Source: Leucoraja erinacea (lineage: Eukaryota). Taken from it: 64,000 nucleotides of DNA. The DNA lies in contig NC_073405.1 of NCBI RefSeq assembly GCF_028641065.1, forward strand, positions 14,012,001 through 14,076,000, given 5' to 3'. Position 1 is the first letter of the stretch, and each line of letters begins with the position of its first letter. A model generated the notes under the pieces. That model was not told where the DNA came from. It worked only from the letters and a program-made list of their open reading frames with translations, and did not search any database. The translations under genes and the position numbers were made by a program. Of this stretch, positions 5,854 to 61,049 are shown one piece after another.

Positions 5854-6066
5854 GTGTTTAAGAAGGAACTGCAGATGTTGGAAAATCGAAGGTACACAAA
5901 TATGCTGGAGAAACTCAGTGAGTGCAGCAGCATCTATGGAGCGAAGGAAATAGGCAACGTTGCGGGCCGAAACCCTTTGGGTTTCGGCCCGAAACGTTGC
6001 CTATTTCCTTCGCTCCATAGATGCTGCTGCACCCGCTGAGTTTCTTCAGCATTTTTGTGCCCCGCG
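5854..6066. mobile_element. Fold-back (palindromic) non-autonomous Penelope-terminus element inserted in a CR1 tail
   Basis: Two inverted copies of the terminus meet at GAAACCC-TTT-GGGTTTC; TSD GAACCTT at 5847-5853 and 6067-6073. Confidence 0.75.
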
Positions 6067-11560: not shown

Positions 11561-11596
11561 CTGAACCCACCTCTTGCACACCACCTTCCCTGAGGT

Positions 11597-11824
11597 AGAC
11601 AAAAATGCTGGAGAAACTCAGCGGGTGCAGCAGCATCTATGGAGCGAAGGAAATAGGCAACGTTTCGGGCCAAAACCCTTCTTCAGACTAGCAACGTTTC
11701 GGGCCGAAACCCTTCTTCAGACCCCTCCCTACCTATGTTCAAGACACGTCAGACACTCTCCGTCGTCTCCGCGCATTACATTCTCTAGGCCCTCACCCCC
11801 CTCAAGAAAAAAAACGTTCTTAAA
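11597..11824 (-). mobile_element. Penelope-terminus element with two tandem hammerhead-like cores
   Basis: Minus strand reads CTGAAGAAGGGTTTCGGCCCGAAACGTTGC then TAGT-CTGAAGAAGGGTTTTGGCCCGAAACGTTGCC; 15-bp TSD CACCTTCCCTGAGGT at 11582-11596 and 11825-11839. Confidence 0.75.
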
Positions 11825-20689: not shown

Positions 20690-23150
20690 CAGATCACAGA
20701 GAGCTGGGGAAACTCTGTGGAGGGTAGCACAGGTCAGGCAGCATCTGTGCAAGAAGAAGAATGTAAAAACAAAGAACGGTAGATGATGTTTAATACACAA
20801 AAGGACATAAAGTGTTGGAGTAATTCAGCAGTTCAGGCAGCATCTGGAGAACATGAACAGCATCACTGGAGACTGATTGTAGAGGGCAGAACAAAGGTGG
20901 AAAAGGGGAGAGACAGGAGAGAGCGTACAGGTAATAGGAACAGAGGCAATGGATAAGAACAGAGGTGCGAGGCAGGATTGAAGAGGGGTGGATTGTGGAG
21001 CCGGGGTGGTAAGTAGCATGAGGAGAAGGGAGGTGTGGAGTCCAGATGGGGCACAGGGGAGAGCAGGAGGGGGGGGGGAGAGGGGGGGGGGGGGGGGGGG
21101 GGGGGGGCGTTTGAGGGAAAGAGCTTACCCAAAATTGGAGAATTCAATGTTTCGTAGGGTTACCTGTGGATGGAATATGATGTACAGTGCCACGGGTTTG
21201 CTTGCATCCTCACTCTGGCAATGGACGAGTCAAATCAAGTCTGCAATTTATCCCATCAGGTAAAGCATAAAAAGAAGTTTAATTTGACACCTAATTCACT
21301 TTTATATCTTCAGTCTTAAAAAAGTTATGGCCATTTTCATACTCGGAAATTAGCATCTTGTTCCCTGTTGCTTTTCCATTGACTTAATACAAAGGTTGTG
21401 ATCGAGGACAGTCAAAAGCCTGTAAGTTTTTGCTCTTCAAACCACGCATGACATGCCTTTCTGCCCATTACTTTCCCATTAAGAATGTCCTGTAGATCAT
21501 CATATTTGGAGTAGTCCAAATTCGGATAATCTCTGCAAATGCTGTCTAAATCAGTCTCTTTTGCTGGGCATTTGGATGGACAATTTTGCATTACTTCTTC
21601 GGAAACATCTGTTTAAAATGTAAAGGGGAAAAAAACACTGAACAGCATTAACAGAAACAAGTTATTATTTGCAGTTTTAGAAAAAAGGTAGAAATGATAA
21701 AGTTAAACGCTAAAACAAATAGTAAATACCCAACAAAAAATTCATATTCATCAGTTTCATCAAATCAATTAAATTAATCTAATCAATTAAATTAATCTAA
21801 ATTCTAGGTCTAAACATCTATCCATTTCTTTAAAAAATGTTTTTTTTTAATAGCCTAAGTTTCCAAATAACAAACTAATCCCATTCACACAAGAATTTAC
21901 AATATAACATGATTTTTAAATCTCACTGTCATTAACTTATATGCCAGACGGAAGAAATTTAATGTTTAATTCCCATAAATTAATCTAGAAACATCCACTC
22001 TCAATATAATCAAAATTATTGTTTTTTTGCACAATACATGTTGCTAAAACTGTTGTGGATATTTAGTATAAAAATATTGACTATGGATAGACAGTTACAA
22101 AAAATATAGACGATTTAGATGGTCTTATGACATGATTGTGGAAAAAAAAGAGGATTTAAATCACCTTGCGAGTGGGTGTTTCTGGAATGTGATCGATTGG
22201 AACGTTGCCGTTGCTGTGAATTTTAACCCCATATTTTGTGGCAGCAATGCAACATTGTGGATGCCGGCTGCCGTAAAACTCCAAAGAAGAAGAACCCCAT
22301 ATTAGCAGGCAAAGACACTGCCGGTTCGCATGGGGCCCAAATAACATTTTCGCGTTGTAAAATTAGATTAAAGCCACCCCAAGAAGCAAGATTATATGTG
22401 AAATATACGACATACCTTTTGTTTTGTCCTGATATTACGATCCGTCACGTTGTAGGCGTTGAGGGCGTTCGAAGTCACTTTTTACTTTAATCTAACTATT
22501 AAATTGTCCAGCGATTTTTTAATTAAAAAAACCGGGAACGGAAGTCAGATCGATTTTTCTTCACTGACTAGCAGCCCGAGAAAATCCCTCTCTGACAAGT
22601 GATACAAACCTGCATTTTAATCCCCCCCCCCCACCCCCCCACCCCCTCTCATAGGCGCCAAAGTCACGCACACAGCCAGTGGCAGAACTGCAGCGCCGTT
22701 GAAGTTAGGTTTTGTAACATCGCTACAGTAGGCCTTGGCGGACCGAGCACATGTTCAACGAAACAGTCGCCGAGTGCACGCTTTATCCCGACAATGTAAC
22801 AAGGGGGCAGTAGATGAGGTTGGAGGAGGTGCATGTGAACCTCTGCCTCACGTGGAAGGGCTGCTGGGGTCCATGGATTGAGGTGAGGGAGGAGTATAGA
22901 GACAGGTGATACATCTCCTGCGGTTGCAGTGAAAAGTACCTGGGGAGGAGGTGGTTTGGAATGGAAGGGGTGAGCGAAGTGAGTGGTCTTAGCGGAAGGC
23001 AGAAAGGGGTGGAGCCATGAATCATGGTGGGATCCCGTTGGGGGTGACTGAACGGTCGGAGGATGATGTGTTGAGTGTGAGGCTGGTGGGGTGAAAGGTG
23101 AAGACCAGGGGAACTCTATCCTTGTTCTGTCTAGGGCGAGGAGGGGCGAG
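20690..23150 (-). mobile_element. Decayed Penelope-like element split by a 1.5-kb AT-rich insertion
   Basis: ORF 22783-23025 contains SIHGPQQPFHVRQRFTCTSSNLIYC (GIY-YIG N-terminus); C-terminal EN remnant at 21120-21228; terminus motif near 20700-20860. Confidence 0.7.
21230..22722. mobile_element. Unclassified non-coding AT-rich insertion (probable non-autonomous DNA element)
   Basis: Sharp compositional shift; interrupts collinear Penelope halves; no recognisable ORF or TIR pair. Confidence 0.5.
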
Positions 23151-23219
23151 ATGGGGAAGGTTTAGAGGAATATGGACCAGACACGGGAAAATATGACTAA
23201 CTTAGATGCGATATATATT

Positions 23220-24945: not shown

Positions 24946-25042
24946 GGTCTGAAGAAGGGTTTCGGCCCGAAACGTTGCCTATTTCCTTCGCTCCATAGAT
25001 GCTGCTGCACCCGCTGAGTTTCTCCACATTTTCGTGTACCTC
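24946..25042 (+). mobile_element. Penelope-terminus element beginning at an intact hammerhead-like core
   Basis: GTCTGAAGAAGGGTTTCGGCCCGAAACGTTGCCTATTTCC...; AGAGGGT repeated on both sides. Confidence 0.7.
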
Positions 25043-26120: not shown

Positions 26121-26273
26121 GTAGACACAGCAAACCTCACTATTATTTAACCAGGAAATTACAAAACACTCCGTGCAGACTGTTATTTCGGTCTTCGGCA
26201 CCATTTCACGGGTTAACTCAAACCACTGCGGTCCACGCAGCATCTCTGGAGAACTGGAGATTGATAGATTCTT

Positions 26274-26439
26274 GTGTTTAAGAAGGAACTGCAGATGCTG
26301 GAAAATCGAAGGTACACAAAAAAGCTGGAGGAACTCAGCGGGTGCAGCAGCATCTATGGAGCGAAGGAAATAGGCAACGTTTCGGGCCGAAACCCTTGGG
26401 TGCTGCACCCGCTGAGTTTCTCCAGCTTTTTTGTGTACC
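26274..26439. mobile_element. Asymmetric fold-back Penelope-terminus element
   Basis: 14-bp TSD ATTGATAGATTCTT at 26260-26273 and 26440-26453. Confidence 0.8.
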
Positions 26440-27439
26440 ATTGATAGATTCTTAATTAGTAGGGGTGTCGGGTTGTGGGGGGAATGCACGAGAAATGGGT
26501 TGAGAGGGAAAGACAGGTCAACCACGGAGTAGACGATGGGCCGAATGGTCTAATCCTGTTCCTAGAACTTATGAAAAAGGATGGGCGACGTCTGAGCAAG
26601 GGCCCCGATCTGAAACGTCGCCTCTCCATTTTCTCAGGCGATGCTGCCTGGCCCACTGTTACTCCAGCACCGTGTGTCTATCTATCCACAGTGACTGTTC
26701 CTCGCTGGTAAATCAAATGTAAAGCCCAAGGTAAACGCTCTGCGCACTCTCTTCATCAGTCACGATGGGGGTAACATGGAATGACGCACCTTATGCACAG
26801 CCCAAAGGCCATTCGGCCCATCAGACGGGGACATGCCGTAGGGTCAGTTCTCTCCTTAGTCCCATCACGTTATTCGTCCAGCTCGCCCACCCATCACTCC
26901 CATGACCGACTACCCTTCCCTTACAGATTTCTCAACGTTATTGGAAATACGAACATTTGTCTTTAACCCGTCCCCACCGACATACACACACATAACCCAG
27001 TTTAGTTTATTGTCACGTGTGCCGAGGTACAGTGAACAGCTTTTGTTTCGTGCTATTCAGGCAACAGAAAGACAATATGTGATTCCAATCGAGCCGTTTA
27101 CAGTGAAAAGATACATGATGAGGGAATGATATTTAGTACAAGGTGAAGCCAGCGGAGTCCGATCAAGGGTAGCCCGGGGGCCATCAAAGAGGTAGATAGT
27201 AGTTCAGTTCTGCTCTCTGGTTGTGGGAGGATGATTCAGGTACCTGATTACAGCTGGGAAGAAACTGTCCGTGAATCCCCGTTCCCCACCACGTCGATAT
27301 CACTCCTTGTTTTTGAGACCATCCACCCCATCTCTGGCACCGGGGCTTTGGAGCCGGAGCGCAGAAACCTCTCTCTCCCCCTTCAAAGGTGTTGGCCGGA
27401 CTGGGAGACAGTCCCTGTCCCTGCGCTCCGCTCTCCCAC

Positions 27440-27619
27440 CCACTGAAGGTTATTTGGGACGGTCTAACCCCCGGCTCCGTGAACCTCATCTCTGGGCTGA
27501 CCCGAGTTGTCTCGGACTTGTCGAGTGCCCCAGGTGAGTGAGAGAGGCAGTGATTGGCCCGCCGGAAGTGAGAGTGGGGCAAAGTCTGGAGCGTCGGCGG
27601 AGCGTCTGGCAGCGTAGAC
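27440..27619 (+). promoter_or_regulatory. TMEM221 CpG-island promoter
   Basis: Inverted CCAAT (27553-27557), GC-rich element and ETS/GABP site CCGGAAGTG (27562-27570) just upstream of the ATG. Confidence 0.6.
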
Positions 27620-27918
27620 ATGCAGAGGGCTGGCGGGAGGGCGGCGGGGACTCGGGGCGCCGCGTCCCGCTGCCTGGCCGCGCTGCTCTCGCTGGCCGCC
27701 CTGGCTGCTCTCATGACGCTGCCGCCGGCCGCTCTGCTGCTGCAGGAGCCGGGACCGCACTTGTCCCCAGTGCCCGTGGCGCCCGCCCGGCTGCTGCGCT
27801 GTGTGGTCCGCGGGCTCGCCTCACTCTCCGTATCGCTGCACCTGTGCTGCCTGCTACTCGCTCTCCTCCTCGGGCACCTGGCGGCGCAGCCCGGCGGCGC
27901 CCACACACACCCCGACAG
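27620..27918 (+). CDS. TMEM221: Transmembrane protein 221 (Jiraiya family), coding exon 1
   Basis: Two hydrophobic segments ending LCCLLLALLLGHLAAQ (human TCLLLAALCGHLGAE); donor CAG|GTAAAC, phase 2. Confidence 0.85.
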
Positions 27919-29899
27919 GTAAACGCAGCGGTGGCGCCCCGTGGCTGGACTGGTCCCGTCCCCTCTCCACACCCGGTGATGGACGGGGAAACGGGATGGG
28001 GGGAGTAACACTCCCGCGGTCAGGCTGCAAGATTCACCTGCCGGCGGAACACCGAGGGAGCGCCGAGGCGGGGGGGTTAGGAGCGGTGCCGAGGGAGCGG
28101 TGTGATGGGGTAGATGGTGCCGAGAGAGCGCCGCGCTCCCGTGAGATGCCGAGGAGGGAGGTGCGGTGCCGGGCGTGGAGGTGGGGGGGGGGTGGGGGTG
28201 GGGGGGGGGGGGGGGGGGGGGGGCGGCTCCGCAGCAGGGGTGGGGATTTAATGTTCCAGCTGTGGCGGGATTTTACTGGAGCGCACGGTCCGCCCTCCCC
28301 GAGGTGACTCTCTGTCCGACCGCTGTCCCGCATCCCCGGTCCCTCACCACCGCCGTGGCCGCGCCTCAGAGGCGCCTGGGGTTTCTTGAGACCCCGATGC
28401 ATTAGGCGCTACAGCAATGCAAGTCTTTGGGAATCAGTGCACCTCTACACGGGTGCTGGGCGGATCTAATGACGGCAGGGATAAGATTGCAGCCCAAGTA
28501 AATGATGGTAGCAAGGTACGGAGGACCGGGGGACCGTCGGCCCATTATGTCTATGCTAGCCCTTGTTGGAAAGGGCTGAATGTGTGCAGAGGGTGATCCC
28601 ACATGAGAAATGAGATAATGACTAGATGATCACTCCCACCCACAGCCGGCTTGTCTTTAGGGCCCCTGGGTGCGGGGAGTGTGGGGTTCTACTCGTCTCC
28701 CGGCATCAAGTGGTGGAAGGTGCCGCTTTGTGACTGTTCCAGAGGGGACACGATTATATCATCACCGCGATGTGGGTGAAAGCTCTCGGTTGCGTGAGTT
28801 GGGAATTGAATGAGCTGCCGTCTTTGTGTGAGCGTTTCTTCTCTCAACCACTCCCCGGCACGGAGTGAACATGTCGACCCCCAGCTGCCTGGCCGGGGCC
28901 GCCACCCGCCTGAATGGCTCTTTCACACAAAAGAGTGGCGGCGATCTGTGAGAGTTTGCTGCCTCGGTCCCTTCACGGCCGTGGCTGCCTTCCCGCAGGC
29001 TTGTGTTCAGAAAAGAATTCAATTGGAATCGCTGGATCAGCAGAGTGAGGAGAGGGGAGGCGAGTTTCTACCGGGGATCGGAAGGGACAGTGTAAAGAAT
29101 TGATGCAATGGGTTATTGTTACCGCAGCGCAGACTGTCTGGCAAGGTTCTGCTTCTGTGGCCAAATAAACACTCCATAGCCATGCCCTCCACAGGGCAAT
29201 CGGCAAACAAGGGCATAGAAAAGAAACAGGAGAACAGGTTAACTCTTCAAATCCCTCTCCGTCGACACAGAGCCCGAGTGGAGGAATCTGGAGCATATAT
29301 GGTTGACTCTTCCCAATAATCCCCAGTTCGTGGACCTCCGGGTGTAGGGCTGGCTGTGGGAGGATATAGATAGAGGATGGTTGGGAGAGACGAGACGACC
29401 GGCAGTGGGAGGATTTAGAGAATGGGTTATTCTCACCCCATTCCGAACGACCACATTCTCGATATTGCGATTGGGTTCTTTTCTGGAATTCAGGGCAGTG
29501 AAGTGTGTGCTCTTTCGCATATGTTTACTATGGAACTCCACAGATCAGCCTCCCTGTCACAGGCACCCCTACCCATCCACTACCCACTGCTTCCTGCCTC
29601 TAAGCCACCTCGCCTCTTCCTGCTCTGCCATCCCACCCCCATCCTCACCTCTCTGTATGTGGCTTCTTGCACCGCCCCACCACAGCTGGAGGAACACACA
29701 TCGCCTTCTGTCTCAGCAGGTTACAGCTCACATTGAATTATCCAACTTTAGATCATGTCTGGATCACGACCGTCTGTTTCTGCCAATCCTCTATTTGTGA
29801 TTTTTGGTTCCGTTTTTCTCTTCCCAATTTTAGTGCATGGCCTGCCATAGGTTAGGTCCTGCATCAGCACTGGGAAGTATAATGCCCGCCAACGGAGAA

Positions 29900-36835: not shown

Positions 36836-36982
36836 GGACAGGATCGTTTATTCTCAAGTGTTGATGAATGAACCCGGGAAAGTTTAACACGTGTCAAATG
36901 TGAACTCCAGTGCTAGTGTGTCGTGCTGTGTTTCCTTTGCCTCTGTGCACTACATGTGGAGATTGTTTGCTTCCCCCGTCAG

Positions 36983-37467
36983 CTCTCTGCATCCACGTGC
37001 TGCTGGAGTTTGAGAAGGAGAGTGCGATAGCAAGTGCCAGTGTCCTTGGTGCTGGAGCGCTGGCAGCAGCCACCATTGTGGTGCATGCGCTGGTGAAGGC
37101 TTGCCGAGTGGACGGGCAGGGTGGTCCCGAGCATGCTGCCACCCTCTTCGAGAACAGCTGCCCCTCTCGAGGCAGGTACCTGGATCCCGAGCGTTTGGAC
37201 CAGGCAGAGGAAGAGGACTCATCGCGCATGCCTGCCTTCCACAAGGAGACAGCCTACGAGCGATACCGGGAGCAAAAGGCCTTCTACGTGGCTACTTCGG
37301 CCAGCCGCAATGGGTATGGGCGATCCCGGGCTCAGCATGCTGCCCGCACTCTCCCCGCTGCCCGCACCTTGCCCCCCGCCGGATCCTGGGACGGAGTCTC
37401 CCACGAAATGAGGCGGGTGCTGGCACGCAAGGGGACTGTTTGCAGGAGGGACTCGACGCTGGTCTGA
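36983..37467 (+). CDS. TMEM221: TMEM221 coding exon 3 (terminal)
   Basis: ALCIHVLLEFEKESAIASASVLGAG...WDGVSHEMRRVL...RDSTLV* matches the human C-terminus WDGVTHEMRRML...KDSTLV. Confidence 0.95.
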
Positions 37468-44380: not shown

Positions 44381-45466
44381 AGCAAGTCAATGTGTTCATT
44401 TGGTTGCAGGCAATTAGTCATAATGTCACAGATGGGAGACAGGCCCTTTGGCTCAAGTTATCCATGCTGACCAAGATGCCTTATCTCAGCTTGTCCCATT
44501 TGTTCATTTTAAGCTCATACCTCACTCCACATTTCCAAATACATTTTAAATGTTGTTCATGTACTTGCCTCAACTATTTCCTCTGGCAGCTCAATACATA
44601 TACCCACCACCCTCTGTGCAAAGAAGTTGCCCCAGGTTCCTTTTAAATCATTCTCCAATCACAAACCTATGACATGTCTTTTTTGATATCCCTTCCCTGG
44701 AAGAAGACTGCATTCAACTTACCTTTGTCCCTCATGAGTTTATACACGTCTCTAAGAATACCCCGAGGTCTCCGATGCTCCAAGGAATAAAAAGTTAGTC
44801 TGACCAACCTCTTCCTGTAGTTCAAGCCCACGAGTCCTGGCAACATGCTTGTAAATCTTCCCTGCACATTTTCTTCTAACAATATGACATATTTTTCAGT
44901 GCCCAAAACTGTACACAATATTCCAAGCATGACCTCACTAGCGTGTTGTACAAATGTGACATGACGCCCTAAAGTTTATACTCAATCCCCTTAATGATAA
45001 TACCAGTATGCCAAAGGCCTCCTTCACTACCCTGTCAATCTGAGGTGGCATTTTCAGGGAGCTATATGCTTGTTCCCCAAGATCCCTCTGCTCCACAACG
45101 CTCCTCAGGGCCCTGCCATTCAGTGCGAGGTCCTGACCTCATTTGACTTCCCAAAATGCAAGACCTGAGACATTTAAATTAAACTGCATTTGCCATCCCT
45201 CAGCCCACTTGCCCAGCCTGCCAGGTTTGGTTTGGGTTCATCCTCCACAGTGGGTGTATAAATAGTTGAAGGCCTGTGTAGATCTGGAACGAGGAAGTGG
45301 TAATGAGGAAGAGAAATGAAGACGAGAAATAGAGGTAATCAGGAGTGAGGTGGGGGTGGCATTGGCAAGGAAGGGTGGAGAGGAGCGGGTGTGGTCGTTT
45401 CTGACAGGATCGGCAAAAGTAAGGTTACACTGAAGCCAAGGATTCGGCAGCGCTCAGTCCCCTCAC

Positions 45467-45579
45467 CTTGTGCTGCACCAGCTCGGGGAGGGATCGCCGG
45501 ACGTGCTCCTGGAGACGGTAAAGAGCCACCGATGGTTCGTTGGCCAGAAAGTACATGCTCTCCGTGAACTTATCTGTAA
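45467..45579 (-). CDS. BORCS8: BORCS8 coding exon 2
   Basis: VTDKFTESMYFLANEPSVALYRLQEHVRRSLPELVQHK, near-identical to human; AAG|GTGAGG donor. Confidence 0.97.
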
Positions 45580-45698
45580 CTGATAATAACAGGGATTTAG
45601 ACCCGGGGTGGTTCGGGGGGTGGGTGGGGAGAATGACAGCGGTTGGAAGAGGAGGAGGCCTCGGCGGGGAGAGAGACGAAGGGGGGGGGGTTCTCCTG

Positions 45699-46175
45699 NN
45701 NNNNNNNNNNNNNNNNNNNNNNNNNNNNNNNNNNNNNNNNNNNNNNNNNNNNNNNNNNNNNNNNNNNNNNNNNNNNNNNNNNNNNNNNNNNNNNNNNNNN
45801 NNNNNNNNNNNNNNNNNNNNNNNNNNNNNNNNNNNNNNNNNNNNNNNNNNNNNNNNNNNNNNNNNNNNNNNNNNNNNNNNNNNNNNNNNNNNNNNNNNNN
45901 NNNNNNNNNNNNNNNNNNNNNNNNNNNNNNNNNNNNNNNNNNNNNNNNNNNNNNNNNNNNNNNNNNNNNNNNNNNNNNNNNNNNNNNNNNNNNNNNNNNN
46001 NNNNNNNNNNNNNNNNNNNNNNNNNNNNNNNNNNNNNNNNNNNNNNNNNNNNNNNNNNNNNNNNNNNNNNNNNNNNNNNNNNNNNNNNNNNNNNNNNNNN
46101 NNNNNNNNNNNNNNNNNNNNNNNNNNNNNNNNNNNNNNNNNNNNNNNNNNNNNNNNNNNNNNNNNNNNNNNNNNN
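45699..46175. other. Assembly gap covering the end of BORCS8 exon 1 and most of intron 1
   Basis: Run of N. Confidence 1.
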
Positions 46176-46200
46176 GCAGCTGCAGCTCCGGCTCCTCCAT
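46176..46200 (-). CDS. BORCS8: BORCS8 (BLOC-1-related complex subunit 8, MEF2BNB) coding exon 1, truncated by gap
   Basis: GGCGACATGG Kozak then MEEPELQL (human MEEPEMQL); CpG-rich upstream region. Confidence 0.9.
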
Positions 46201-46539
46201 GTCGCCAACAAAGATCTTTGGTCGCCGCCGCCTGAAGTGTCCGCCGCTCCACATCCCCCGAAGTCACGGAGCCGAGATGCGGGTTCCGATCTTTGGTTCC
46301 GCCGCAGTCGGAAGGTTGGAAGCAAAGAAGGGTGTTTGGTGGGATGTGGGCGGCACCAGTACTCAAGCAAAGATTACAGAGGAGCTCCTCTAGGATCCAA
46401 GTGTCGCCCGGCGGGTGTGCAGCCTCCGAAGCCCCCGATCCGGCAGCAACGGCGAGAACACAGAACTGTGCAGCAGAGCTTCAGCCCACAATGTCTGTGC
46501 CGCACATAATGTCAACTATTATCTGTCAACACATAACCT

Positions 46540-47855
46540 ACCTATTCTTTAGGGAACGGAGGTTCCCCTCTTCGACTATAGATGAGGCTCTCACCAGGGT
46601 CTCCTCTATATTCCGTAGCTCCGCTCTCACTCCCCATCCCCCCACTGGCAACAAGGACAGAGTCCCCCTTGTCCTCACCTTCCACCCAACCAGCCGTCAC
46701 ATACAACAAATAATCCTCCAACATTTTCGCCTCCTCCAACGGGATCCCACCACTGGCCACATCTTCCCATCTTCTCCCCTTTCGGCTTTCCGCGGAAACT
46801 CCCGGGTCAATTCGTCCCTTTCCACCCAAACCATCCTCTCCCCTGGTACTTTCCCTTGCAACCGCAGGAAATGCGACACTTGTCGCTTTACCTCCCCCCT
46901 CGACTCCGTCCAAGGAGCCAGCAGTCTTTCCAGATGAGGCAGAGGTCAGGGCCGGCCTTAAACCAATTGGACCAATTGCTCCCAATTGGGACCCGCGCTA
47001 AATTTCCGTATTTCATACGGAAATGCAATACAAATACGGAAATACGAATTAGCGTTGTTAAATACGGATTTTCTTTTTAAAACATTGTGTTGTTAAATAC
47101 GAAGTTTTTAAAAAACAACCATGGATAATCGTTAAGTGTCACCCGCTGCACTGGCCATGAGATGAAAACGATTTGTTAACTACCACTGTTAGCACTTGTT
47201 AACAGCCAGTAGTTAACATGTGGTTATACAATGTGTCATCAGTACATCGATCCACATTCCTCAGAAAATGTAATTGTGTTCTTACTAAGTATTAATGATG
47301 CCCGCGTTCCTTTGAATAAAATTCACTGGAGTCCCAACCTCATCTATTGCATCTGCTGTTGTAGGTGTCAACTGCTCTACATCGGTGAGACCAAGCACAT
47401 GCTTGCAATAGCTTCGCCCAATATCTCCACTCAGTTTGCATTATCCAATCTGATCTCCTGGTGGCTCAGCACTTCAACTCCCCCTCCCATTTCGAATCTG
47501 ACCTTTCTGGCCTGGGCTTCTTCCATGGCCAGAGTGAGTCCCACCGGAAATTGGAGGAGCGACACCTCATATTTCGCTTGGATAGTTTTCACCTTAGTGG
47601 TATGAACATTGACTTCTCCAATTTCAGATAGTCCTTGATTTCTCCCTCCTTCCCAGCTCTCCCACAGCCTACTGTCTCCGCCTCTTCCTTTCTTCTTCCC
47701 ACCCCACCCCACCCCCCCACATCAGTCTGAAGAAGGGTCTCGACCTGAAAAGTCACCTATTCCTTCGCTCCATAGACACTGCCTCACCTGCTGAGTTTCT
47801 CCAGCATTTTTGTCTACCTTCGATTTTACCAGCATCTACAGTTCTTTCTTAAACA
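46540..47855 (+). mobile_element. 5'-truncated Penelope-like retroelement (linker, Cys-rich finger, GIY-YIG endonuclease, 3' terminus with hammerhead-like motif)
   Basis: FFRERRFPSSTIDEAL...RVPLVLTFHP...GTFPCNRRKCDTC and NLIYCICCCRCQLLYIGETK; 3' end CTGAAGAAGGGTCTCGACCTGAAAAGTCACC...CTTAAAC. Confidence 0.88.
46947..47330. mobile_element. hAT-like DNA transposon fragment nested in Penelope
   Basis: Starts CAGGGCCGGCCTTA (hAT-type terminus; similar CAGGGCCGGATTTA at ~15671); interrupts Penelope just before NLIYC; second TIR not seen. Confidence 0.5.
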
Positions 47856-49404
47856 TAACCTACCTATATCCCTCCATTCCCTGCACTTCCATGTGCCTAT
47901 CAAAAACCCTCTTGTAACACCACTATCGCATCTGCCTCCACCACCATCCATAGCAGCGCTTTCCAGCCTCTATGAAAAGAAAGTTGCCTTGCACAAATCC
48001 TTTAAACTTTACCCCTCTCATCTTGTATGAATGCTCTCTAGACTTTGACATTTCCACCATGGGGAAAGGGTTCTGATTGTCTAGCCTACCTAAGCCTTTC
48101 ATAATTTTATATACTATCACGTTTTTAGTGTCAGCTGCTTACTTGCGAATCAAATTTTAAAGCCACACTAAAGTAGGACATTTTGTAGACAGTGAAGATG
48201 ATTATGAAAAATTACAGCCGGATCTTGAGGCAAGTGCATTGAGGAAGGGTGAATGGAGTAAAATGCAGATAAGTGCATAAAACGTTCACAGTGATGGCAG
48301 GGACCTGGAGAGTGTGGTGGAGAGGGATCTAGGAGTGCAGGTACATAGTTCCTTGAATGTGGTGTCACAGGCAGATGGCATGATGGGACTGATCACATGT
48401 CGTGACAACGAAGGTGGTGGGATTTCTAGAAATGCAAGAAAAAGAGGAACAATATTTAATTAGAACAGGCAACTGAACCATCCTCTCACCAGCTGGAGAG
48501 CAGTCCTGACTTCCCATCTACCTCATTGGAGACCTTTGAACTATTTTAAATTGGATTTTATTGGACTTTATCTTGCACTAAATGTTATATCCTTTATCCT
48601 GTATCTACATTGTGGATGTGCAGGAAGGAACTGCAGATGCTGGTTTAAACCGAAGATAAACACAAAATGCTGGAGTAACTCAGCGATCCAGGCAGCATCT
48701 CTGGAGAGAAGGAAAGGGTGATGTTTTGGGTCGAGACCCTTCTTCAGGAGATGACTTGATTGTAAACATGTATAGTCTCTTCACTGACTGGATCGCACGC
48801 AACAAAATGCTTGACAACAATAAACTACGTGGCAATAATAATAAACTAAACTAAGCCTATATATACACACACTGAACTTTTTTTCCTCATTATTGTACTG
48901 TTTACATATGTATACATATTCTGTTGTGCTGCTGCAAGTAAGAATTTTGTTCTTCTAACTGGGACATATGACAATAAAACACTCTTGCATCTTGACTATT
49001 TATCATTACAGTATGTACACTGTTTATTTTGTGAGCCTTTGTGTGAACAAGAAATGTAATTGCTTTTCGGTGTAGGTGACAATAATCTAATCAGAATCTG
49101 AGGAGTGAAATCAGAAAAAAGGAATAACCAGATCTGGAAATAAACTGTGCAGTTGGGGTGGACTAGGGTTTTTTGGGTTTGAGTATCGAGGATTTTTAAG
49201 CAAAGGCATGATAATCATGTTGGTCACATTTCAGACAGGTTGTTTTCTCTGGAACGTTGGAGGTTGCGAGTGGACCTGATAGAGGTATATAAAATTATGA
49301 AAGGCATAGGGTAGATAGTCATAACCTTTTACCCAGGAAGGAAATATCAAACACTAGAGGGCATAGTGTTAACATAAGGCAAGAAAGGCAAAGTATAAAG
49401 GAGA

Positions 49405-56911: not shown

Positions 56912-57233
56912 TCAGTGGGTCAGCGATTTCCGACCTTTCAGCATCCTGCGCAAGATCAGCTCGATGCCGGCACGGGTGCTGATGCGCCTCTGCCAGCCGT
57001 GTGTCCGCAGTCGCTTGATGAACTTCGGCTGGTACTCGGTGCCCCGCTTCTTCGTGCGGACCTGCTGCCGGCTCCAGGGGAAGCTCCAGGGGGCAAAGCC
57101 ACCAGCCATGACCGTTCGTTGCCCTGCGGGAGGGTACAGGAGGCCAGATGGCTGGCATAGAGCGGAGCTACACACTGTCCGGTGGCTGGGGTTCGGTGAA
57201 ATGGTGGGAACCAAGCACTGTGCTGGCTGCCAT
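56912..57233 (-). CDS. MRPL34: Mitochondrial ribosomal protein L34 (bL34m), coding exon 2
   Basis: [51 protein letters not shown] is the L34 domain; acceptor TTGCTCTCTGCAG. Confidence 0.96.
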
Positions 57234-57618
57234 CTGCAGAGAGCAACAAAGACAGCACCACATCAGCAACAAGCACCTGCTCCAGGCACAACACAGCCCA
57301 TCGTGTCCACGATCAGCAAAAAGGCACTATTGGGAACTTGTCAGGACTCGACATGGCCCTGTGGGTTACACTGCTTCCTGTTCTCATCCAGATACTTTTA
57401 AATGGGACAAGTATCTGTTTCCTCACCACTTCAGGCAGCGTCCACTGATGCTTACCCCCGTCCAATTCTGCTATCAAATGCCTGAGTTCCAGGGCCTGAG
57501 TTTTTCTACTTTCACAGAGTCCCCTGTAGCTCCTAACATCAACCGAAATGAAGAGATTTGAACGATTGTTAACAGGCTACATTAGCATGAGTCTTTGAGC
57601 AGTCTAGATCAATTGCAA

Positions 57619-57717
57619 CCCGTCTGAAGAAGGGTTTCGGCCCGAAACGTTGCCTATTTCCTTCGCTCCATAGATGCTGCTGCACCCGCTGAGTTTCTCC
57701 AGCTTTTCTGTGTAACC
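57619..57717 (+). mobile_element. 99-bp Penelope-terminus element with intact hammerhead-like core in the MRPL34 intron
   Basis: Perfect 15-bp TSD CTAGATCAATTGCAA at 57604-57618 and 57718-57732. Confidence 0.85.
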
Positions 57718-59870: not shown

Positions 59871-59908
59871 TGCATCCTCCAAACTCAGAACATGCCGAAG
59901 AATTAATG

Positions 59909-60385
59909 ACAAAGACTGCTGGAGTACCTCAGTCAGGCAGCACCTCTGGAGAGCATGGATAGACCACGTTTCGGATCTGGACCCTGCTTCAGACTGAATG
60001 GAAGGAAGCTGGAAGAGAGAGGGCGGGACAAAGCCATAGGTGGATGACAGACAAAGTGCTGGAGTACCTCAGTGGGTCAGGCAGCATCTCTGGAGAGCAT
60101 GGATAGACCACGTTTCGGATCTGGACCCTGCTTCAGACTGAATGGAAGGAAGCTGGAAGAGAGAGGGCGGGACAAAGCCATAGGTGGATGACAGACAAAG
60201 TGCTGGAGTAACTCAGTGGGTCAGGCAGCATCTCTGGAGAAAAATTACTTTTCGGTCGCGACCCTTTTTCAAGGTCTCAACCGAAAAGTCACCCATCCTT
60301 TTTCTTCGGAGATGCTGCCTGACCCCCTGCGTTACTCCAGCACTACGTGTCTATCTTTGGTATTAATCAGCATCTGCAGATATTT
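59909..60385. repeat. Tandem ~143-bp repeats of the Penelope terminus ending in a fold-back copy
   Basis: Units start at ~59909, 60051 and 60195; first two nearly identical. Confidence 0.8.
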
Positions 60386-61049
60386 GTGTCTACAAGTGGG
60401 AAGACAGGCCAGTTTGAAGTTGCAGAGAGGGTTGGGGTGGGCCGGAGGTGGATAGGATGAAGGAACATCCCGGGTAGAGTAAGCCAGGGTTGCTGAGGTG
60501 ATTCCAGCGTATAGCAGCTGTTTTGTTGGTACATAATGAGGCCAGTTGGAGAGGAACAACCCATGGTACATGTGAAGCTGTGAAGTAAGTGCAGGTCCGA
60601 GCGTGGATTGCAGACCCCGGGCAAAGACATAAAAAAGTGCAGCACACTACAATGCTGAGAATCTGGAAAAAAATGGAGTTGCTGATTATCTAAACAGTCC
60701 TAGCTAGTCATAGTGTTTAAGAAGGAACTGCAGATGCTGGAAAATTGAAGATAGACAAAAATGCTGGAGAAACTCAGCGGGTGAGGCAGATTCTATGAAG
60801 CGAAGGAAATAGGCGACGTTTCGGTCGAGACCCTTCTCTAGTCTTAGAGTCTATATCATACAGCACAGAAACCGACGCTTCGGCCGAACTCGTCCATGCT
60901 GACCAAGATGCCCCATCTACACTAGTCCCACCTGCCTGCGTTTGCCCCATATACCCGTCCAACTGTTTTTTTAATGTTGCTGTAGTACGTGCCTCAACTA
61001 CCTCATATGGCAGCTCGTTCCATACACCCACCACCATATATGTGCTAAA

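Follow-up and report, generated by a model that had tools for sequence, protein, structure and literature searches.

A dead Penelope-like element with a predicted hammerhead terminus in Leucoraja erinacea, and short copies that may stem from run-off of reverse transcription

The insertion at positions 46546 to 47852 of the analyzed stretch of Leucoraja erinacea DNA (64 kb, referred to as the window) is almost certainly a truncated Penelope-like element (PLE) carrying a minimal hammerhead ribozyme motif (min-HHR). In full, it is probably a dead, 5′-truncated PLE insertion whose hammerhead is predicted to need a dimer for cleavage, surrounded by short copies that represent termini of several related subfamilies and were likely left by run-off of the reverse transcriptase (RT). 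Taken by itself, the origin of the short copies by run-off of reverse transcription at the RNA 5′ end has an even chance of being correct.

A 15-mer directly before the focal insertion is repeated exactly after it (Table 1). Among 2,931 random flank pairs that were scored, the longest common word was 12 nt, and none had one of ≥13 nt. The exact duplication indicates a single insertion, and the coding part and the terminus therefore belong together. The open reading frame (ORF) remnant has 1,012 relatives at an E value of ≤0.001 (phmmer; best, 1.7e-30) and aligns with residues 683 to 809 of a 924-amino-acid RT+GIY-YIG protein, downstream of the RT core of the relatives. The Cys finger is followed by a gap and then by GIY-YIG in two further frames, and the latter remnant matches the GIY-YIG region of relatives with tblastn E values down to 1e-12. 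The coding region with a Cys finger and GIY-YIG endonuclease named in the original prediction is thus confirmed by matches to RT+GIY-YIG proteins. The GIY-YIG remnant by itself has no Pfam GIY-YIG match, the 131-amino-acid frame at 46542 to 46934 gave no match in Pfam or in a word-index protein search, and an ESM Atlas search with the focal coding part returned only uninformative scores of <0.8. Six of the 12 relatives scanned exceed 750 amino acids; all six have a Pfam GIY-YIG match and five of them RVT_1 as well, several of these matches lying below curated cutoffs. In full-length relatives, a single ORF encodes RT and, at the C terminus, GIY-YIG, whereas the focal copy keeps only remnants of thumb, linker, and endonuclease (EN).

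The 387-bp repeat that interrupts the coding region is likely a DNA transposon fragment, with imperfect inverted subterminal arms (46986 to 47005 and 47318 to 47337) and a right end that is apparently lost. We take its first bases to resemble hAT-type transposon ends; it also contains repeated CCAATTG words, and each of its halves is multicopy in related organisms. In related organisms, 14 RNA reads as well as contigs contain the joint between 46946 and 47334, which skips the insertion. With its frameshifts, this interruption, and no RT core, the focal copy lacks a full-length intact ORF and is unable to encode RT. Five coding remnants lie in the window, of which only the focal one has kept a terminus, and a full-length element was not encountered. 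Its 3′ untranslated part shows no similarity to the untranslated region (UTR) of relatives.

Table 1 Features of the focal insertion, of related copies, and of neighboring genes, in window positions
Feature	Position	Strand	Basis or remark
Focal insertion	46546-47852	+	One unit between 15-bp direct repeats
Left target site duplication, 15 bp	46531-46545	+	Exact match to right copy
Right target site duplication	47853-47867	+	First three bases are last bases of element
ORF remnant, 5′-truncated: end of RT thumb and linker, without RT core	46546-46946	+	phmmer, tblastn
Cys finger CX4CX2C of RT-EN linker (Neptune/Nematis type)	46857-46883	+	Motif in translation
Secondary insertion of another repeat, 387 bp	46947-47333	.	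Empty site in sibling; read joints
GIY-YIG endonuclease remnant, at least two frames, stop TAG 47629-47631	47334-47631	+	tblastn
3′ untranslated part of pLTR, pyrimidine rich	47632-47721	+	Sequence
TCAGT directly before core, initiator-like; also YAG acceptor	47722-47726	+	Loose ends, 5′ ends of copies
Minimal type I hammerhead motif	47725-47756	+	Model trained on relatives; fixed-register scan; relatives' alignment
Terminus as far as short 3′ end (~+93 from C3)	47757-47820	+	End positions of copies
Optional ~35-nt PLE "tail" to long 3′ end (~+128)	47821-47855	+	End positions; PMC8557442, PMC11167929
Second coding remnant of same family, no terminus, uninterrupted site	22745-23165	-	tblastn; sibling alignment
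Short solo copy with complete core (young UUCG-loop subfamily)	57619-57717	+	15-bp duplication
Short solo copy with complete core (young subfamily)	24947-25041	+	Register scan; ends
Short copy after partial tandem of 34 nt; two complete cores at 34-nt spacing	11593-11722	-	Register scan
Head-to-head inverted pair, young subfamily, one arm tailed	5855-6059	.	End positions
Head-to-head inverted pair, young subfamily, one arm tailed	26273-26445	.	14-bp duplication
144-bp tandem, 2.3 units, A9 and H17 mutated, plus inverted pair	59908-60387	.	Register scan
Short tailed copy, nearest to focal element (91%)	60713-60837	-	Identity; ends
BORCS8 first coding exons	45428-46215	-	Pfam; ~330 bp from focal element, across assembly gap
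Jiraiya/TMEM221-like and mitochondrial-type L34 exons	27572-27919, 36904-37464, 56915-57262		Pfam

The focal element likely falls in the Neptune clade, an assignment based on one linker motif rather than a tree. CX2-5CxxC in the RT-EN linker is a Neptune/Nematis motif (PMC8557442), and Neptune and Poseidon are given as the only vertebrate PLE clades (bioRxiv 10.64898/2026.07.22.740005). The EN+ PLEs of the Neptune clade share the order of RT, CX2-5CxxC linker, and C-terminal GIY-YIG, as well as 5′ truncation, an inverted 5′ copy, a hammerhead in the pLTR, and a tail of 30 to 40 nt on one arm (PMC8557442), whereas in the focal copy RT is gone and the coding region is split by an insertion. The pLTR, the optional tail of 30 to 40 nt, the inverted 5′-truncated copy, and the target duplication are all present in the window, with duplications of 14 to 15 bp versus the shorter ones of 8 to 10 bp in rotifer examples (PMC3846280). 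The closest named relatives of the element protein are from stingray and whale shark, which makes an elasmobranch host likely. The related-element loci compared below (93; 13 plus the best 80 of 426) were drawn from genome and metagenome collections and represent few families; their host DNA is evidently animal. For those designated L001 to L013, the contigs belong to three bacterial MAG assemblies, an indication of animal host DNA in those bins. A scan of viral contigs confirmed no related locus, and tail pattern scans of viral and metagenome contigs gave no matches.

The focal motif, CUGAAGA-A-GGGU-CUCG-ACCU-GAAA-AGUC at 47727 to 47754, starts 95 nt past the stop codon and consists of the core (47727 to 47733), an extra A (47734), a helix II of four pairs (47735 to 47746), and GAAA. 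Helix I has two pairs, helix III has no loop, every core letter is present, and the predicted cut site follows 47754. Cleavage is predicted to occur only in dimers. The hammerhead-type 3′ end with an extra A exists as claimed and, given the 15-bp duplication, sits in the same insertion as the coding region. The extra A is a listed hallmark of the PLE min-HHR (PMC4209133) rather than a peculiarity. The family has G10.1-C11.1 and the extra base between positions 9 and 10.1, with G.U at 10.1-11.1 in the focal copy. The palindrome at 15.2-16.2 is kept in four of the five complete copies (the young ones), the exception being the focal copy, where AG replaces CG.

A fixed-register scan of the window recovered five copies, the focal one included, with a complete core (CUGANGA/GAAA/UH) and a four-pair helix II, and no copy in any of 30 shuffles. 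A loose hammerhead pattern gave 11 matches versus 5.1 expected, a count reached in 3 of 100 shuffles, and is weak evidence when taken alone. The Rfam search proposed as a check yielded no hammerhead match at the focal locus at gathering and E-value thresholds, and minimum-energy folds of monomers mostly did not give the hammerhead. A chance-level Rfam match to RMST_8 was seen at 47739 to 47881 on the minus strand (18.9 bits; E = 0.37; gathering threshold, 80). Farther downstream, 48 nt past C3 (47755 to 47778 and copies), lies a second pyrimidine run that ends in YAG, with ATG next to it, and resembles a splice acceptor; the AG is absent there in relatives.

Evidence for the fold comes from distant relatives. 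In 65 loci the DNA extends ≥150 nt beyond the end of the ORF; 25 of these contain a strict hammerhead core, located in 24 cases 90 to 106 nt past the ORF end, compared with 95 nt in the focal copy; the strict core was found neither on the opposite strand of this downstream DNA nor in 1,300 shuffles. Many of the 40 loci without it depart from it by U4C or by just one or two substitutions, and U4C in an otherwise intact core characterizes an entire subfamily of relatives (L002, L008, L010, L012, and others; ~100 nt past the ORF). Between the focal terminus and eight relatives, in identical register, the 15 core positions are 92% identical and the flanks 17 to 35%; identity over helix II and its loop is 33% for the focal copy and 58% for a young copy. 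A covariance model built from the 25 relatives only ranked 11 window termini (modest E values, 0.006 to 0.95) above all other sites, the next window site having an E value of 2.5. The focal copy scored 15.4 bits with structure and 5.6 without, which placed it below an unrelated site.

Two pairs differ in a compensatory manner between lineages, 2.2-1.2 (C-G versus G-C) and 10.4-11.4 (C-G versus U-A), a level matched in none of 500 shuffles; these are two events between two lineages, relatedness inflates the count, and the filter favors helix II pairing. The alignment comprised the 12 of 22 window copies that span the core without gaps and 12 relatives, chosen after a filter that required either pairing or an intact core. 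The conserved register, core, and compensatory pairs of the relatives indicate that the hammerhead fold is under selection in the lineage and that it is older than fish. The original prediction had based a selected RNA structure on helix II covariation within the window, and that ground gives way, as no helix II pair is changed on both sides across the 22 copies; the selected structure is supported by distant relatives and not by the variants cited. What separates the latter is the letters of the loop and a single U-A/U.G change on one side of a pair; elsewhere, the window copies differ mostly at CpG sites in the alignment, and the whole-structure covariation score of the 22 copies was equaled or beaten by 66 of 500 shuffles. 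The U-A at 15.2-16.2 was considered as covariation and rejected, being best read as double CpG decay.

The terminus, said to recur more than 10 times, was found in 34 segments at 22 loci (two or three of them marginal), against five coding remnants, and the short repeats indeed represent the same terminus as the focal element. They fall into several subfamilies that are 67 to 97% alike. Five loci form a young subfamily with 95 to 97% mutual identity and 82 to 83% identity to the focal copy, none of which has an upstream UTR or ORF, and only 1 of 11 copies compared reaches 91% with the focal copy. The focal copy cannot be their parent, as had been proposed, given its missing RT core, frameshifts, insertion, decayed motif, and distance from the young short copies. 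Members of the young subfamily (24949, 57624, 11686, and 11720) have a UUCG loop, a GUU cut triplet, and a 6-nt palindrome across helix III, with U.G in place of U-A at the closing pair of helix II and the first pair of helix I. In one other copy (20768 to 20892, minus strand) the hammerhead is deleted and the UTR and tail are kept. In the doublet at 11657 to 11722 (minus strand), the upstream partial unit ends ≤2 nt from the predicted cut site; this single case could reflect a switch of template to the end of a cleaved RNA.

Relative to C3, 3′ ends of the copies lie at +84 to +99 in 14 segments and at +120 to +131 in 12, with three shorter, and exactly one arm is tailed in six of seven inverted pairs. 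All eight noninverted solo copies scored have their 5′ end at -6 to +4 from C3, two decayed or marginal loci being unscored and the references covering the upstream DNA of some subfamilies only, while inverted arms start at scattered positions from +3 to +55. Short copies in relatives have 5′ ends that scatter more widely (7 of 29 fall at -10 to +3), and their 3′ ends lie at similar distances. The combination of inverted pair and tail is published anatomy for truncated PLE insertions (PMC8557442, PMC3846280), and the short copies therefore do not call for a separate self-amplifying family.

The TCAGT that directly precedes the core is a likely transcription start. It adjoins C3 in three of the four compared window copies that keep the UTR and presumably fits the initiator consensus, its A being 47724. 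TATAWA starts 30 to 45 nt (mostly 37 to 39 nt) upstream of C3 in 40 of 57 relatives (background, 1.2%), and the usual spacing between TATA box and start puts the start just ahead of the core, by a few bases. The copies in the window itself show no TATA box. The TATA spacing of the relatives and the initiator-like TCAGT led to adoption of the run-off reading. TATA and an initiator in the pLTR were noted in a rotifer element (PMC3846280), and an internal, TATA-less promoter is described for Drosophila Penelope (PMC2377424). In three runs from related organisms, depth rises 7- to 17-fold at 47722, although contig depth does not equal copy number. At both 47724 and 47725, 787 to 881 records per run break off just before the position and have unrelated flanks, the listing having covered a minor part of these records. 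Part of the loose ends could reflect the upstream sequence of other subfamilies.

RNA over the terminus in a related organism is strand symmetric (~3,340 versus 3,070), and 94% of the reads continue into unlike sequence, both of which are expected for passengers in host transcripts. Poly(A) reads of a related organism (~6% of the run) showed no pileup of starts or ends at the predicted cut or anywhere, and no back-joint of circular RNA occurred among the RNA matches listed from a poly(A) library. Head-to-tail joints of a 98-nt unit were found in 12 and 8 contigs of two related organisms. Regarding retrozyme-type tandems, the 144-bp example has changes at A9 and H17, the 34-nt doublet is a partial unit, and the 98-nt tandems were seen only in contigs of related organisms. 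Two other ideas were discarded. Cleavage does not account for the 5′ boundary, since the cut would lie 28 nt downstream of C3, not upstream; an ORF beginning inside the terminus, as in PAc (the Poseidon element of Anolis), is contradicted by a frame that differs between subfamilies and in relatives.

Under the run-off reading, the pLTR promoter would start the RNA a few bases upstream of the hammerhead core, and a tandem transcript would carry the terminus of ~130 nt at both ends. The RT-GIY-YIG protein would nick the target DNA and begin cDNA at an internal site ~93 or 128 nt past C3; two 3′ ends are observed, and RT initiation there is inferred from the anole element, in which the two ends of PAc are explained by two internal RT starts (PMC11167929). 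Starts in the downstream terminus would generate long truncated copies such as the focal one, and starts in the upstream terminus would generate copies of 95 to 135 nt with a sharp 5′ end. Two hammerheads may pair via the ACGU palindrome and cut after GUC or GUU. Inserted copies keep an intact cut site, so the RNA template was uncut or rejoined.

Several observations could also be accommodated by a self-amplifying, nonautonomous family (SINE-like, or "solo retrozyme") with a unit of 95 to 135 nt, an internal promoter, and PLE protein acting in trans, which we regard as possible but somewhat unlikely. The close identity of the five young loci and their lack of upstream UTR or ORF, the sharp 5′ boundary in short copies and related reads, the 98-nt joints, the excess of termini over coding remnants, and the existence of nonautonomous PLE derivatives (PMC8557442; bioRxiv 10.64898/2026.07.22.740005) favor such a family. 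However, 64 kb was examined, and the young subfamily may have a sister with an ORF outside it; the RNA shows the passenger pattern; and the promoter element of the relatives lies upstream of the unit, so that short copies would lose it. A broader proposal, held just as tentatively, is that in elasmobranch-type genomes this hammerhead-headed unit is a major dispersed repeat that copies itself via the Penelope protein, i.e., a ribozyme-headed SINE derived from "strong-stop" cDNA, with the hammerhead at the RNA 5′ end and a TATA/initiator spacing conserved from invertebrate-hosted relatives to fish. Plain 5′ truncation, in which RT coming from the downstream terminus drops off at or just after the folded hammerhead or the host tolerates short copies better and a start site plays no part, is unlikely. 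PLEs are typically heavily 5′ truncated (PMC8557442), and the scattered starts of inverted arms and the spread of starts in relatives fit this explanation, but the noninverted solos all start within a 10-nt window past the structure, at the initiator-like motif, and the relatives' TATA spacing indicates the same place.

The remaining alternatives are both very improbable. If the 5′ boundary were a splice acceptor (pyrimidine tract plus CAG), the short copies would derive from spliced RNAs; the tract and CAG do precede the core in three of the four UTR-keeping window copies compared, and the intron of Drosophila Penelope ends at helix I (PMC4209133). Nevertheless, relatives lack the AG at the corresponding place, no RNA-specific splice joint was found among the joints listed (357 more lay outside the listing), and the short copies have no upstream exon in common. 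The motif might instead be a conserved promoter or protein-binding sequence that merely resembles a hammerhead, as the lack of an Rfam match, the lack of covariation within the window, the common U4C variant, and an alternative fold that pairs the core with itself in relatives would allow. That fold is not conserved in the window family, and catalytic positions, extra base, G10.1-C11.1, and palindrome occur in register with compensatory pairs in helices I and II; furthermore, homologous motifs cleave in vitro (PMC4209133, PMC11167929).

Most of what distinguishes the focal locus has precedents. The PLE min-HHR was defined in PLE termini, its hallmarks including the extra base and a palindrome at 15.2-16.2 (PMC4209133, Cervera and de la Pena 2014); its activity is described as low and confined to dimers, and solo copies by the thousands in fish, coelacanth, and frog genomes were read as truncated PLEs (PMC4209133). 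The type I core, the unpaired base A9/10.1, G10.1-C11.1, the palindromic 15.2-16.2, and the absence of loop 3 are common to that motif and the present family; helices II and I are 4 and 2 bp here versus 7 to 8 and 4 to 5 bp in the schistosome consensus, and a Drosophila variant has a helix I of 2 bp, as here (PMC4209133). Cartilaginous fish are unnamed among hosts in the main text of that paper. PAc (PMC11167929) likewise has a hammerhead followed after ~100 to 150 nt by two ends that bracket a tail, and its template is reported to be uncut RNA, with no RNA-seq reads that start at the cut site; it differs in belonging to the Poseidon clade and in an ORF that starts in helix II, versus no conserved frame across the window termini. 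Non-LTR retrozymes (PMC7229834; bioRxiv 10.64898/2026.07.22.740005) are also noncoding, pLTR-derived units with type I hammerheads in monomers and tandems, whereas the window copies are mostly dispersed monomers or inverted pairs and the sole multiunit tandem has a mutated core. Retrozymes from PLE termini are reported in one chondrichthyan (bioRxiv 10.64898/2026.07.22.740005), an expansion of PLEs in the introns of the whale shark has been described (10.1101/443036), and PLEs are present in all vertebrate lineages (PMC4350176).

The extra A, the palindromic, stemless helix III, the solo copies, the inverted pairs, and the tail are thus all published PLE features. The least-described detail is that short copies begin a few bases from the hammerhead, at the likely start, which suggests RT run-off. 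We found no literature account of the hammerhead of this family in skates, rays, or sharks, although supplements, Repbase, or Dfam may list it, and no description of a run-off origin for short PLE copies; the accessible portions of PMC7229834, PMC6765202, and PMC6431247 describe neither. For the role of the hammerhead in PLEs, this family is a very abundant vertebrate test case, in which a sharp 5′ end and 3′ ends fixed at two positions could help to reveal the RNA start and whether uncut template is used in vivo. The focal locus, as a dead copy, changes nothing alone.

Pfam matches elsewhere in the window, which mark it as vertebrate DNA, are to exons of BORCS8, ribosomal protein L34, and a Jiraiya/TMEM221-like gene (Table 1), a combination that we take to recall one human chromosome 19p13 neighborhood. 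The focal element lies in the upstream region of BORCS8, on the opposite strand.
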